From a virus (Duplodnaviria; Caudoviricetes), in IMG/VR virus record IMGVR_UViG_2898597404_000001, positions 10,614-74,613 of that record: a stretch of DNA of 64,000 nt; one strand, 5' to 3'. The notes beneath the pieces were generated by a model that was not told the origin of the DNA, made no database searches, and worked only from the letters and a program-made list of their open reading frames with translations. A program made the position numbers and the translations under genes. Of this stretch, positions 9,480 through 18,473 are shown one piece after another; positions within the stretch are counted from its first letter, which is position 1, and each line of letters starts with the position of its first letter.

Positions 9480-10667
9480 ATGCCACGACACTACAAGCGC
9501 GACCGCGACCGCAAGCGCGGCCGCGAGCGCGGCGCGCAGCTCGACCTGTTCGCCGCACTCTCCGGGGACCAGCCCCCCACCCCGGCGGACCTCCCGCCCG
9601 ACCCCGACCCCGATCAGAAGGAGATCACCCTCACCCCGGACAGCGTCCGCCCGCAGGACCCGCCACCCGCCACCGGCGGCGACGCGGACGGCGGCCAGGC
9701 CCCGCCCCCGCCGTCGCCGAGGCCGGCCCCGCGAAAGGCGCCCGACTCCGGCCGCCTGCACCAGCTCGCCGAGCGCGTCAACGCGGCGTGGCACGACGCC
9801 CAGCGCGGCAACCGCCACCACCAGACCGCGTCCCATATCGAGATCCCCCTCGGCGTCGTCGCCGCGCTCACCCAGATCCGGCAGGCCGACCCGAAGGGCC
9901 CCGACCTGGCCGCACAGATCATCGACCTGGACGGGCCGGGGCTGCTGTCCATGTACCGGCAGATCTGGGCCATCCAGTGGATCACGAACCCCTACCTGAT
10001 CAACGCCGCCCGTCCGCTCGCGGAGTGGCTCGACGAGCCCGACGACCCCGACCCCGCCACCGTCGAGGCCGTCCGCCACGTCACCGCCACGGCGCTCCAC
10101 GCGGGCCTGCTGGACTTCACCGGGAACCCGGACCCGCACTGGCGCTGCGAGACCGACGTGCTCGGCCGCGTCCTGGTCGAGCTGCGCTCCTCGGGCGCCA
10201 GCGCGAGCCTCGCCGAGATCCACACCCCGCAAGAGCTCGCCAACGCCATGGCCGCCCTGACGATGCCGGTCGACGAGCTGCTCGCGGCCGAGCTGGAGCG
10301 CGGGACCGGTCCCGGCGGCATCCACGACCCGGCGGCCGGGACCGGCGGGCTCCTCCGCGCCGCCGCGTGGGCGCTCCGCAACCAGGGCATCGAGCCCTCC
10401 CGCTTCGCGTGGGCCGCGACCGACATCGACCCGATCGCCGCCGCCTGCTGCGCGGTCAACGCCCTCGTGTGGGACCTCGGCCCGGACGTCCTGGTCCACT
10501 GCGGCAACACCCTCACCGAGCCGGACGGCATCAAGCGGGAGCGGCTCCGCCGCAAGGAGATCTTCGCACTGCGGAGCGAGCTGATGGACGGCGCGCGGAT
10601 GCTCGCCGCCTACCGGCGGGCCATGTCCCTCCTGGAGGGCACTGTCAGCGGCCGAGACTGTCCCTGA
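9480..10667 (+). CDS. N-6 DNA methylase family (HsdM-like SAM-binding) protein
   Basis: HTP, IHDPAAGTGGLL (motif I), ATDIDP, HCGNTL; no NPPY/F motif seen. Confidence 0.75.
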   Translation: MPRHYKRDRDRKRGRERGAQLDLFAALSGDQPPTPADLPPDPDPDQKEITLTPDSVRPQDPPPATGGDADGGQAPPPPSPRPAPRKAPDSGRLHQLAERVNAAWHDAQRGNRHHQTASHIEIPLGVVAALTQIRQADPKGPDLAAQIIDLDGPGLLSMYRQIWAIQWITNPYLINAARPLAEWLDEPDDPDPATVEAVRHVTATALHAGLLDFTGNPDPHWRCETDVLGRVLVELRSSGASASLAEIHTPQELANAMAALTMPVDELLAAELERGTGPGGIHDPAAGTGGLLRAAAWALRNQGIEPSRFAWAATDIDPIAAACCAVNALVWDLGPDVLVHCGNTLTEPDGIKRERLRRKEIFALRSELMDGARMLAAYRRAMSLLEGTVSGRDCP

Positions 10668-14974: not shown

Positions 14975-15574
14975 ATGCCCGGCATCCGATCCGCCGACTA
15001 CGACGAGACCGTGGCCAAGCTCATCCTCGACCAGATCATCCAGGACATGGCCAAGGGCCTCGCCAAGGAACCGCTCTCCGAACTGGAGCACGAAGGGGGC
15101 GGCGCCCGCCACGAATTCATGATGGCCGCGCTCGACGAGTACAAGAAGCGCGGCGGCCAGATCCAGACCCACATCGGCGGCCCCGCCGAAGCCCTCCTCA
15201 AGATCCTCCACCAGGAGCGCCGCCTGACCATCAGCCTCCCCGGCGCCTTCCACACCTACCTGGCCGGCACCGCCCTCTGCACGACCCCGCCCGAACGCCT
15301 CAGCCCCGAAGAGGCCACCTGCCGCCGGTACCTCGACGACGCCCAGGAGATCGAGCGGGGCCGCGGACGCGAGTACCGCCTCACCATCCCGACCGACGAC
15401 AAGGTCGTCGTGGAACGCGTCCTGTCCGTCCTCGACACCTACGCCCAGGCTCTCTACGGCCCCGCCCCCGCCCAGGGCGACCAGTCCGCCCGCCGCGAGG
15501 CCCAGAAGACCGGCCGCCTCGTCCTGGGCCGCATCGCCCAGGCCCGCCACAACACCCTCGGCACCAGCCGATGA
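14975..15574 (+). CDS. hypothetical protein
   Basis: RBS aggagg, strong codon bias. Confidence 0.7.
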   Translation: MPGIRSADYDETVAKLILDQIIQDMAKGLAKEPLSELEHEGGGARHEFMMAALDEYKKRGGQIQTHIGGPAEALLKILHQERRLTISLPGAFHTYLAGTALCTTPPERLSPEEATCRRYLDDAQEIERGRGREYRLTIPTDDKVVVERVLSVLDTYAQALYGPAPAQGDQSARREAQKTGRLVLGRIAQARHNTLGTSR

Positions 15575-15588
15575 CCGGAAGGAGAACC

Positions 15589-16077
15589 ATGGAGATCCCG
15601 CAGCGGCTCGCCCACCTGCCGGTCTGCCCCCGCAGGAACGTCCCCGTCCCCTACGCCAACATCACCACCGAGGACGGGCAGCACGACTTCACCGCCCTCG
15701 ACTCCGCCAAGGTCGTCCGCCTCGCCGCCGAACGCCGCTGCGGCATCTGCGAGGACACCCTGGACTACTGGATCGTGTTCCTCGGCGGCGAGCGCAGCGC
15801 CCAGAGCCGCGCCTACACGGACCCGCCGATGCACGAGGAGTGCGCACGGTTCGCGGCCCGAACCTGCCCCTACGTCACCCGCGCCCACATGAGCCGCCGC
15901 AAGACGCCCCTCACCCCCGACACCACCGTCCCGAAGGGCTTCTCCGAGGACAAGCCCGCCGAGTTCCTCCTCTACTTCACCCGCAGCTACAAGCACCAGG
16001 TCACCCGCGACGGCGTCCTGTTCCGCCCCGCCCCCGCCGTCCGCCTCGAACGCTGCGGCTACAGCGCAGCCTCCTGA
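15589..16077 (+). CDS. actinophage-type Cys/His protein
   Basis: PVPY...CGIC...DPPMHEECARFAARTCP. Confidence 0.7.
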   Translation: MEIPQRLAHLPVCPRRNVPVPYANITTEDGQHDFTALDSAKVVRLAAERRCGICEDTLDYWIVFLGGERSAQSRAYTDPPMHEECARFAARTCPYVTRAHMSRRKTPLTPDTTVPKGFSEDKPAEFLLYFTRSYKHQVTRDGVLFRPAPAVRLERCGYSAAS

Positions 16078-16097
16078 CCGAGAAAGGAACGGACCGA

Positions 16098-16667
16098 ATG
16101 ACCGAGACCACCGAGACGACCGAGAAGCGGCGCGAATCCAGGCTGTCCCCCGCCGGGCTCGCCGCGCTGCTGGAGCTGGCCGCCGCCGAGATGGACCCCG
16201 ACGCGATCACCGCGTTCGCCGAGACCGCCGCCCGCCTGGACGACCGCCACAGCATCAAGAACAAGTACGCCATCTGGGTCCAGTGCCCCGACGCCGTCCA
16301 GGTCTACGGCTACATGGAATGGCAGCAGCACGGCCGCCAGGTCCGCTACGGCCAGTCCGCCATCGGGATCTTCGCCCCCCTCACCCGCCGGACCGGCACC
16401 GAGGAGAAGGGAGGCGAGGACGCCAAGCGCACCCCCGAGGAGAAGGCAGGCAAGGACGAGAAGAGCCGCGAACGGGTCCTCCACGGCTTCAAGGTCGCCT
16501 GGGTCTACGACCTCTCCCAGACCAAGCCCCTCGACTGCCCATGCCCCCGGAAGGGCCCCTGCACCTGCCCGCCCCCCGAACCGCCCGCCCCGGCCGGCAC
16601 CGCCCCGCCGACCGGAGACATACAGGACCTGCTCGACGCCCTGACCGAGGACCCGGACGACCAGTAG
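16098..16667 (+). CDS. ArdC-like N-terminal ssDNA-binding domain protein (DUF1738-type)
   Basis: HSIKNKYAIWVQCPDA..VYGYMEWQQHGRQVRYGQSAIGIFAP...FKVAWVYDLSQT matches the ArdC-N pattern; no metalloprotease domain. Confidence 0.8.
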   Translation: MTETTETTEKRRESRLSPAGLAALLELAAAEMDPDAITAFAETAARLDDRHSIKNKYAIWVQCPDAVQVYGYMEWQQHGRQVRYGQSAIGIFAPLTRRTGTEEKGGEDAKRTPEEKAGKDEKSRERVLHGFKVAWVYDLSQTKPLDCPCPRKGPCTCPPPEPPAPAGTAPPTGDIQDLLDALTEDPDDQ

Positions 16668-17051
16668 CCTGCCGGTCCCGACGCCCGAACGGGGGCCTCA
16701 TGCCCGTGACGACAAGCCAGTCGATGCCACGCCCGCGCGGGGGCTTCGTGCCCGCGACGATCAGCAGCTCGGAGCAGCGCCCGTGCCGGGGCTTCGTACC
16801 GGCGACGCTCCATGCCTCCACGCCCGCGCCGGGGCTTCGTACCCGCGACCAGGCAGGTCTGTACCTCGTGCCCAAGCCGGGGCTTCGTACCCGCGACCAC
16901 CGGCTCGCCGCCGCGACGCCCGCGCGGGGGCTTCGTACCCGCGACGCAGGAGGTCTGACCTCCACGCCCGAGCCGGGGCTTCGTACCGGTGACAACAGGT
17001 CGCCGACAGCCGAACGGGGGGCAGGGCCCGCAGCACACTGAGGCCCGCTAT

Positions 17052-17116
17052 GCCCTGGAAGGGCCTCACGCAGCCGTGAGCGGCCCCCCGACGCACCCTC
17101 TGGGAGCAATAATGGG
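17052..17116 (+). promoter_or_regulatory. array-internal leader-like block, copy 1
   Basis: 39 nt identical to 17920-17958; AATAAT at 17108. Confidence 0.55.
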
Positions 17117-17919
17117 TCCACTCGGCGGGCTCCTCCGATGCCCGCGCCGGGGCCTCGTACCGGCGACGGCGCGCGAATGTGACCACGCCCGAGCGGAGGG
17201 CTTCGTACCCGCGATGGAGGGTCACCCCCGCCACGCCCGAGCCGGGGCCTCGTACCCGCGACAGACGCACCCCCGCCCGGCCACGCCCAAGCCGGGGCTT
17301 CGTACCGGCGGCCCGGAACTGGGAGCGACGCCCAAGCCGGGGCCTCATACCGGCGGCCCTGTAAGGGGAGCAGACGCCCAAGCCGGGGCCTCATACCGGC
17401 GGCCGATGAGCAGGGGTCCAAACGCCCAAGCCGGGGCTTCGTACCGGCGGCCCCAGAGAGAAGGCCGACGCCCGAGCCGGGGCCTCGTACCGGCGACTAC
17501 GCGACGGAGTCACATGCCCGCGCCGGGGCCTCGTACCGGCGACCCGGTACCGGGGGAGCAGCGCCCGAGCCGGGGCTTCGTACCGGCGACCAAGTTCGAG
17601 ACGACCGATGCCCGAGCCGGGGCCTCGTACCGGTGACTACGAGATCGAACCCCATGCCCGAGCCGGGGCTGCGTACCGGCGACTGTAGATGCCTCAGGAC
17701 CATGCCCGCGCCGGGGCCTCGTACCGGCGACTACGGAGAGGGCGCCCCACGCCCGAGCCGGGGGCTTCGTGCCCGGCGGCAAGCCATCGGACTCCTCCAG
17801 GCCCGAGCCGGGGCTTCGTACCGGTGATCAGCGGAAGCTGCTCGGCGCCCGCGCGGGGGCTTCATGCCCGCGACGTAGCAGGAACAGCCCACCCCAGCCC
17901 GGCGAGGGGAGCCCGAGTG

Positions 17920-17984
17920 GCCCTGGAAGGGCCTCACGCAGCCGTGAGCGGCCCCCCGGCGCACCCCGCAGGGGCTATAAGGGA
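17920..17984 (+). promoter_or_regulatory. array-internal leader-like block, copy 2
   Basis: 39 nt identical to 17052-17090; TATAAG at 17976, same offset as in copy 1. Confidence 0.55.
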
Positions 17985-18473
17985 ACGCGGCGGTGTCACC
18001 AGGCCCGAGCCGGGGCTTCGTACCGGCGAACGAGCAACCGACTTTCCCCAACGCCCACGCAGGGGCCTCGTACCTGCGACGCGCAGATGTAGCTGTCCAC
18101 GCCCGAGCCGGGGCTTCGTACCGGCGACATCCACAACCTCCTGCGCTGCGCCCGAGCCGGGGCTTCGTACCGGCGACATGGCATGCAGACTCGTCACGCC
18201 CGAGCCGGGGCCTTGTACCGGCGACACACGACGACCACCCATGCCCGTGCCGGGGCCTCGTACCGGTGACACGGCGACGAGTCGTCCTCACGCCCGTGCC
18301 GGGGCCTTGTACCGGCGACATTGCCTGGATGATCGCTATGCCCGAGCCGGGGCCTCGTACCGGCGACTCAGCGCAAGGACCCGCGCCCGAGCCGGGGGCT
18401 TCGTACCCGGCGGCGGCCAACCGGCACTTCGGTCACGCCCGCGCAGCGGCTTCGTAGCTGCGACCTCCGCAGC

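Follow-up and report, generated by a model that had tools for sequence, protein, structure and literature searches.

A compact, drifted repeat array in a prophage, probably a type V-M CRISPR array served by the prophage's own Cas12m

Type V-M CRISPR (short palindromic repeats, clustered and regularly interspaced) systems, formerly called V-U1, are built around Cas12m effectors such as MmCas12m2 (PDB 8hhl), GoCas12m (8pm4), MsCas12m and PmCas12m. They are enriched in plasmids and present in some prophages (PMC11656645). In Cas12m2, the 36-nt scaffold lacks order over its first 7 nucleotides (nt), and the guide pairs with its target over only 17 bp (PMC10442227). PmCas12m also forms a 17-bp heteroduplex, cuts after repeat nt 2-3, trims at guide position 17-18 and has its optimum with 17-nt guides (10.64898/2026.03.26.714355), and the CRISPR RNA (crRNA) of GoCas12m contains about 30 nt of repeat (PMC11013384). 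From these scaffold and guide sizes a mature Cas12m crRNA is about 47-50 nt long, which is the period of the array that we describe here. This array lies in a 64,000-nt stretch of the Caudoviricetes record IMGVR_UViG_2898597404_000001 (positions 10,614 to 74,613; hereafter the window), which corresponds to G000:C28:23512-87511 of a 9.6-Mb, 72% G+C host genome. We consider it likely that this is a type V-M CRISPR array in compact form, and that the Cas12m serving it is a long-form one which the same prophage encodes.

Array layout and the repeat as a crRNA scaffold

The array occupies 16681-18464 on the + strand (positions without a prefix are those of the window) and consists of 33 units of a 30-nt repeat with consensus ACGCCCGAGCCGGGGCTTCGTACCGGCGAC, at periods of 43-51 nt that cluster at 46-48 nt. 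Core matches and a covariance model of the unit define three blocks: block 1 with 7 units, made of 30-nt repeats and 13-18-nt spacers (16681..16993, +), block 2 with 16 units (17138..17874, +) and block 3 with 10 units (18001..18464, +), the gaps between them measuring 144 nt and 126 nt. The 13-nt core GGGGCTTCGTACC, allowing up to three mismatches, had 33 + strand matches in 16692-18446, and the rest of the 64 kb gave just 8 (+) and 13 (-) scattered ones, each with three mismatches. The covariance model recovered the 33 units and no further unit in the window, of which only the absence of additional matches is informative because the model was built from these very units. A long G+C-rich hairpin (18466..18530, +; -47.6 kcal/mol, z -1.81, equal folding in 7/200 shuffles) closes the array and is a possible terminator without a T-run. 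An earlier reading of the letters alone (the sequence-only reading) had described 33 structured repeats in blocks of 7, 16 and 10, unique short spacers and a closing hairpin, and all of these were recovered. Its estimate of 13-20-nt spacers, mostly 16-18 nt, was right about the bulk (21 of 30) and one short at the top, the measured range being 13-21 nt; the period it gave, 43-50 nt, was likewise correct at the lower end and extends in fact to 51 nt.

A classical array has near-identical repeats and spacers of about 25-45 nt. Here the repeats have a mean column identity of 79% in a reference-free alignment, with loop and flanks nearly invariant, and the 30 clean spacers, counted with a 30-nt repeat, are 13-21 nt long. 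Taking all arrays of the prophage together, 56 of 62 spacers have a pyrimidine as their penultimate base, which suggests a true repeat length closer to 32 nt, with about 16 nt free to vary. All window spacers are unique. Spacer G+C content is 63.6% as against 72.1% for the prophage. No open reading frame (ORF) with coding-type codon bias or third-position G+C content (GC3) spans 16668-18611. At gathering thresholds no Rfam family was found in the window, nor was any tRNA, and a blastn search through 50,697 phage records with the array as query returned no match.

The repeat is recognisable from other arrays. Those beside Cas12m-like genes have in common the pattern A(T/C)GCC(T/C)-stem-GGCYTYGTR-stem-GAC, which we found in 11 units on viral contig L013, in 17 units on viral contig L014 and in one unit at the end of viral contig L015, each beside a Cas12m-like gene, as well as in the 8 repeats of the MsCas12m plasmid pMESIL02 and in 2 repeats of an M. 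intracellulare plasmid. The description of the repeat as previously undescribed is not supported, given this homology to V-M repeats next to Cas12m genes on viral contigs and plasmids. The eight MsCas12m repeats of pMESIL02 are 63-95% alike, so drift between repeats is not peculiar to the window array. A metagenome contig (L055) has 17 units at periods of 47-87 nt, and among the 103 other genomes of the host's genus the exact two-core pattern at a 28-40-nt gap was found in none. Separately, viral contig L009 carries about six irregularly spaced units of the same handle (113-528, -); no Cas12m-like gene was found in the 13.5 kb of this contig that were examined or in L056. L009 and L056 both derive from contigs of 39,205 bases.

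An alignment of 84 units, of which 72 belong to this prophage and 12 to other sources, shows how the drift is distributed. The main helix of 6 bp (columns 10-15 with 25-30) shows double changes in all six pairs, and doubly changed cells number 63, compared with 14.9±2.8 in shuffles, none of 500 shuffles matching the observed count. Overall, 91.9% of cells are paired, as against 29-46% when the partners are slid. A second helix of 3 bp (columns 5-7 with 16-18) is 96.8% paired and hardly varies, its one compensatory change being a U-A. Numbered from the 3' end, the helices join -28..-26 with -17..-15 and -23..-20 with -6..-3, followed by a terminal GAC. Exactly these pairs are described for the PmCas12m crRNA (10.64898/2026.03.26.714355), and the G..A pair before the terminal C of the Cas12m2 scaffold (PMC10442227) is matched here. 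Covariation thus supports the hairpin. Selection on the structure and a role of the + strand as the RNA strand are also supported. Judged by pattern and pairing, the repeat is a 5'-shortened type V-M repeat that carries the whole Cas12m scaffold in 30-32 nt. The proposal in the sequence-only reading that this is a guide-RNA array is borne out by the scaffold and by the covariation.

With about 17 nt of guide in use, each 46-48-nt unit amounts to about one mature crRNA. The other V-M arrays examined (L013, L014 and the plasmids) have periods of 66-78 nt, so that the window units are some 25 nt shorter, the difference corresponding to parts that the enzyme does not use. One route to this size is that, with no Cas1 or Cas2 found, there would be no ruler for spacer length, and the unused distal part of the spacer together with the dispensable 5' end of the repeat may have been lost by deletion.

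The Cas12m effector and the four arrays of the prophage

The window encodes terminase, portal, head, tape-measure, tail and endolysin proteins by Pfam and/or PHROGs, with which 22 window ORFs, a subset of the total, were scanned. A 43-bp direct repeat is present at C28:13223-13265 and 96619-96661, its right copy lying within a tRNA-Pro(CGG) gene, and an integrase gene stands at the left end; repeats and integrase together delimit a prophage of about 83 kb (G000:C28:13223-96661). For its portal protein, just two relatives turned up in the genus, both weak, and identity to known phages does not exceed 35%.

The effector gene lies on this prophage, 4.8 kb past the window end. It is intact and encodes P0001, a Cas12m-family protein of 849 aa (C28:92272-94821, equivalent to L011:4761-7310, +), identified by phmmer against the PDB (8pm4, E 3.6e-49; 8hhl, Cas12m2, E 7.3e-46; 23vw, Cas12m, E 2.2e-32) and by Foldseek. 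The AlphaFold2 (AF2) model of the protein is confident (predicted local distance difference test, pLDDT, 91.6; predicted template-modelling score, pTM, 0.87), and its Foldseek matches are 8hhl (E 1e-34, target-normalised template-modelling score, TMt, 0.84) and GoCas12m 8pm4 (TMt 0.85), the next fold being TnpB at TMt 0.42. Read off the alignment to Cas12m2, the RuvC residues are H553, D741 and D832/D834, which is the H-D-D variant, and the HCCC zinc site is conserved as H804/C807/C824/C827; among 54 relatives, H is found in 41 and D in 42 at the RuvC columns. In the clade naming of PMC10442227, H-D-D marks clade 2, whose members bind DNA and do not cut it. From the triad and the published relatives we infer RNA-guided DNA binding without cleavage for the 849-aa protein.

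The effector carries an insertion of 285 aa at residues 208-493, where the median in 54 relatives is 58 aa. In the full-length AF2 model, which is confident there, the insertion comprises a beta-rich part (about 208-335) and a helical part (about 398-477); a model of the insertion alone was poor (pLDDT 52.7). Residues ~390-493 of the Atlas model resemble Crp/MarR-type winged helices with template-modelling (TM) scores of 0.51-0.66, a resemblance of the C-terminal part that we treat as a lead only. Among the 12 proteins and 150 representatives listed, two Actinomadura proteins (829 and 836 aa) match over the full length, and in the remaining listed relatives of at least 700 aa the match is confined to the C-terminal part. 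P0001 matches once in its own genome and in 2 of the 103 other genomes of the genus (G035 strongly, G072 weakly); no match was found in 400 sampled genomes of the family, and P0001-like genes were present in 1 of 50,697 phage records and 8 of 72,556 plasmid records.

All 72 units of the repeat in the host genome are on this prophage, 39 of them outside the window array at three other places. Array A0 has two units directly after the integrase gene (C28:14019-14084, -). A1, with four units (C28:23259-23414, +), stands after a 208-aa gene and before the helicase gene that opens the window. A2 is the window array of 33 units (16681-18464, +), 13 nt after an ArdC-N-like gene, and A3, also of 33 units (C28:94847-96510, +), begins 26 nt after the 849-aa gene and ends about 100 nt before attR. 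Each of the four arrays is thus directly downstream of a gene, on the strand of that gene and 13-26 nt after its stop codon; across the 104 kb searched, no isolated single unit was found between other genes. In the circular form of the phage, cas12m and its array would face the integrase gene and its two units across attP. The sole near-identical pair of spacers across arrays is A3 spacers 21 and 26 (16 matches). As an aside, A1 spacer 2 and A2 spacer 2 have 12 of 18 bases in common, beginning GATCAG.

The two interruptions of the window array are leader-like. Interruption 1 (16994..17137, +; by alignment) and interruption 2, a second leader-like copy (17875..18000, +; by alignment and folding), have a stretch of about 60 nt in common (GCCCTGGAAGGGCCTCACGCAGCCGTGAGCGGCCCCCC...), and the 3' part of interruption 1 recurs before the main run of A3 (L011:7405-7500), the array next to cas12m. 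Neither block folds better than shuffles. The leader-like block also holds an A+T-richer stretch (...GC(A/T)ATAA(T/G)GG / ...GCTAGGTT), a candidate -10 element.

These results alter part of the earlier picture. The sequence-only reading called the array Cas-less and invoked an unrecognised effector, a claim contradicted by the Cas12m-family gene beside the sister array; its advice to inspect the rest of the element for cas genes is what the 849-aa protein answers. Its statement that the 64 kb hold no cas gene agrees with our data as far as tested, the sole Cas12m-like match of the genome falling outside the window. Cas1 and Cas2 (PF01867 and PF09827) had no match anywhere in the 97.7%-complete genome, and a simple scan of the host genome revealed no other CRISPR-like array. 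Two host loci considered as CRISPR-like, C10:505976-506297 (periods 44-46 nt, one interval of 89) and C10:1036318-1036577 (periods 52-53 nt), were rejected as plain tandem repeats of near-identical whole units without unique spacers. The host genome further contains 22 matches to PF07282 (TnpB-type), none of them on the prophage contig C28.

A related prophage carries the same arrangement with different content. Genome G035, of the same genus, has a long-form cas12m gene, seen as L012, whose product is 53% identical, followed by at least 21 worn units of a homologous repeat. Its contig C38 holds a syntenic prophage piece (30-74% protein identity) with three arrays. One has 16 units (68.87-70.18 kb). 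Another, of 8 units, stops 168 nt short of the helicase homolog, at the A1 position, and the third, of 7 units, opens 16 nt past the ArdC-like homolog, where the window array stands in the present prophage. These arrays were found by BLAST of the whole array against the 104 genomes of the genus, a search that gave chance-level short matches in all 104. Identical spacers in homologous arrays had been named beforehand as a sign of a binding-site array or a satellite; the G035 and present spacers have no 11-mer in common. Array positions that are kept while the spacer content is unshared speak against both.

Spacers, objections and rival explanations

The origin of the spacers was assessed from their composition. 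In the window spacers (n=29), the 3-nt periodicity of G+C is 0.467, compared with 0.332±0.032 after shuffling (0/2000 shuffles reach it) and with 0.505 in coding fragments of the same length. The value is in keeping with capture of coding DNA from genomes or elements rich in G+C, as far as one statistic on short sequences can suggest. The strand of origin is unbiased, with 12 sense-like and 14 antisense-like spacers.

Several observations weigh against a working type V-M array. No targets were found: the 69 spacers matched the array-masked host genome with a best-match mean of 13.35, which is no excess over the 12.70 of shuffled (40 shuffles per spacer) and the 13.13 of reversed controls, the few exact matches of 15-18 nt being mostly G+C-rich low-complexity words. 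There was also no excess of matches of the present spacers to their own prophage or to the G035 prophage pieces, or of the G035 guides to this prophage. Single spacers of 16-18 nt are too short for large phage, plasmid or metagenome collections, where chance matches are expected. The sister array A3 lacks the coding-type periodicity (0.332 vs 0.341). Three of the 30 window spacers are just 13-15 nt long, and counting the two semi-conserved bases as repeat would leave a free part of about 16 nt, below the 17-nt optimum. The drifted repeats could also signal decay. The cas12m gene is about 50 kb from the window array, no sigma-70-type promoter was found in a scan of 15500-18700, no Pfam family matched the effector at E<=0.01, and the PF07282 scan of the genome missed it. 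Finally, the periods in G035 are long and irregular (51-177 nt), so that compactness is no fixed trait of the lineage.

Part of this evidence would suit a role of the handles in cis, on the 3' ends of phage messages, where Cas12m would bind or cut them for processing, stability or timing and the spacers would matter little. The placement of all four arrays 13-26 nt behind a stop codon on the strand of the upstream gene, the two array positions kept in the G035 prophage, the free spacer length there (periods 51-177) and the lack of a DNA target in the host, its own prophage or the G035 prophage are all in keeping with it. However, 33 units in a row far exceed the needs of a processing site, the periods cluster at 46-48 nt and leave a guide-sized gap, the window spacers bear a coding-DNA signature as captured protospacers would, and the 104 kb searched hold no isolated unit between other genes. 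We regard this explanation as unlikely, if the best of the alternatives.

Quite unlikely, too, is that the array is a decaying relic, formerly working and now drifting. The repeats do differ (79% mean column identity), no targets turned up in the host or in either prophage, the adaptation genes Cas1 and Cas2 were not found in the genome, and the L012 and G035 arrays are more worn and irregular. Yet the drift is compensated, with 91.9% of cells paired and double changes in six of six main-helix pairs, while loop and flanks stay nearly invariant and the periods keep to a narrow range. No break interrupts the effector ORF, all motif residues are in place and the predicted fold is confident, and the experimentally studied MsCas12m array is likewise only 63-95% alike.

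The sequence-only reading had further suggested guides that enlist the host's Cascade, or an RNA anti-CRISPR. For Cascade, neither Cas1 nor Cas2, the only cas families searched for in the host, nor any CRISPR-like host array was found. An RNA decoy or sponge that soaks up a Cas protein, be it a Cas12m or a different one, belonging to the host or to a competing element would benefit from the many handle copies, and phage-borne repeat units that inhibit Cas proteins are known (PMC11656645). We consider it very unlikely here: no host system on which it could act was found (P0001 matches once, so the host genome is without another Cas12m-like gene, and there is no Cas1, Cas2 or CRISPR-like array), and the phage itself encodes the matching effector beside a sister array.

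The idea that the array acts as DNA, as protein-binding repeats (a sopC/parS-type centromere, an iteron origin or a packaging site) served by a neighbouring gene, can draw on the tandem 43-bp units of F plasmid sopC, each with an inverted repeat, and on a gene that starts 148 nt after the array and looks ParB-like by eye at its N-terminus, for which Pfam gave a cupin domain alone and no ParB domain; it is hardly credible, since the stems co-vary as is unexpected for a sequence-specific duplex-DNA site, the unit has homologs in the crRNA scaffolds next to Cas12m genes, all copies are oriented strand-specifically, in step with transcription, and the spacers are unique.

A compact type V-M array read by the prophage's Cas12m remains the likely explanation. 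The arrays would be transcribed together with their upstream genes, and Cas12m would cut the transcripts to crRNAs about 46-50 nt long, in which the guide accounts for about 16-18 nt. The resulting complexes would bind DNA flanked by a protospacer-adjacent motif (PAM) and leave it uncut, thereby blocking transcription or replication, as with MmCas12m2, GoCas12m and MsCas12m; the targets are likely to be rival mobile elements. A possible but doubtful extension is that type V-M has here been turned into a hard-wired guide set without a ruler. Its arrays would sit at fixed places of differently timed operons (after integrase, before helicase, after the ArdC-like gene and after cas12m) and supply different guide sets in lysogeny and in lytic growth, each unit being exactly one mature crRNA. 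In this extension the beta-rich and winged-helix-like domains of the long-form Cas12m reader may add a second nucleic-acid contact, and the protein may act on the phage's own messages at the handles.

Neighbouring genes and comparison with known systems

The gene upstream of the window array (15840..16667, +) has a weak ArdC-N-like match (PF08401, E 0.0017, below cut-off; phrog_7245, E 8e-5), and 13 nt separate its stop from the first repeat. The downstream gene (18612..20003, +) encodes the 463-aa protein with the cupin domain assigned by Pfam; it is outside the CRISPR system and opens a sugar/aminotransferase/3'-phosphoadenosine-5'-phosphosulfate (PAPS)-reductase cluster. This cluster (18612-25781) encodes cupin, DegT-type aminotransferase, myo-inositol-1-phosphate-synthase-like (Ino1), glycosyltransferase-like and PAPS-reductase-family proteins and may be a DNA or sugar modification module; its DegT, Ino1 and glycosyltransferase portion is without counterpart in the related G035 prophage.

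The locus shows what a CRISPR array may become without the Cas1-Cas2 ruler and with an effector that reads about 17 nt: units shrink to the size of a finished guide and repeats drift with the fold kept. Such arrays are likely to escape finders tuned to identical repeats and to spacers of about 25-45 nt, and phage-borne Cas12m guide sets may be under-counted. For a binding-only system, 72 guides in one prophage is a large set, which raises the question of what a temperate phage silences. In addition, dense multiplex guide arrays for Cas12m could take the natural unit of 46-48 nt as a ready template.

Among described systems, several share single features with this prophage. The TnpB-derived TldR proteins (bioRxiv 10.1101/2023.11.30.569447), some of them prophage-encoded, are nuclease-dead members of the TnpB/Cas12 lineage, as the present effector would be, and repression by binding with a short guide would apply here as well. 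The present system differs in its multi-guide array and in the lack of a host-DNA match above controls. TldR, for its part, reportedly relies on a single, fixed omega-type guide directed to a host promoter. The CRISPR mini-arrays and solitary repeat units of viruses (PMC11656645) are also viral repeat-spacer units at a distance from cas genes, and in both cases a part in inter-element competition is proposed. As described there, they have 1-2 spacers and copy the host repeat to use host Cas proteins; the window array has 33 units, no CRISPR system was found in its host and the effector is phage-borne. TIGR-Tas (tandem interspaced guide arrays; PMC12045711), too, has short guides in phage-borne tandem arrays outside classical CRISPR, with an unrelated Nop-domain effector and a different array logic, whereas the repeat here is a Cas12m scaffold.

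Type V-M itself is the closest match. The effector has the same fold and family, with the H-D-D RuvC and the zinc site. In the crRNA scaffold both helices recur in the same register, as does the terminal GAC, and the use of about 17 nt of guide fits the unit size. As in other V-M systems, Cas1 and Cas2 were not found and the carrier is a mobile element. A literature search found no description of the compact multi-array form or of the enlarged effector; supplements of Cas12m papers may list native spacer lengths. Type V-M in prophages was already known (PMC11656645), and what is new is a compact, drifted, multi-array form with an enlarged effector: units of 46-48 nt, with the repeat cut to its structured 30-32 nt, in place of the 66-78 nt of the V-M arrays examined; 72 units dispersed over four arrays, three of them far from the effector gene; and a Cas12m whose insertion exceeds the median of 54 relatives.

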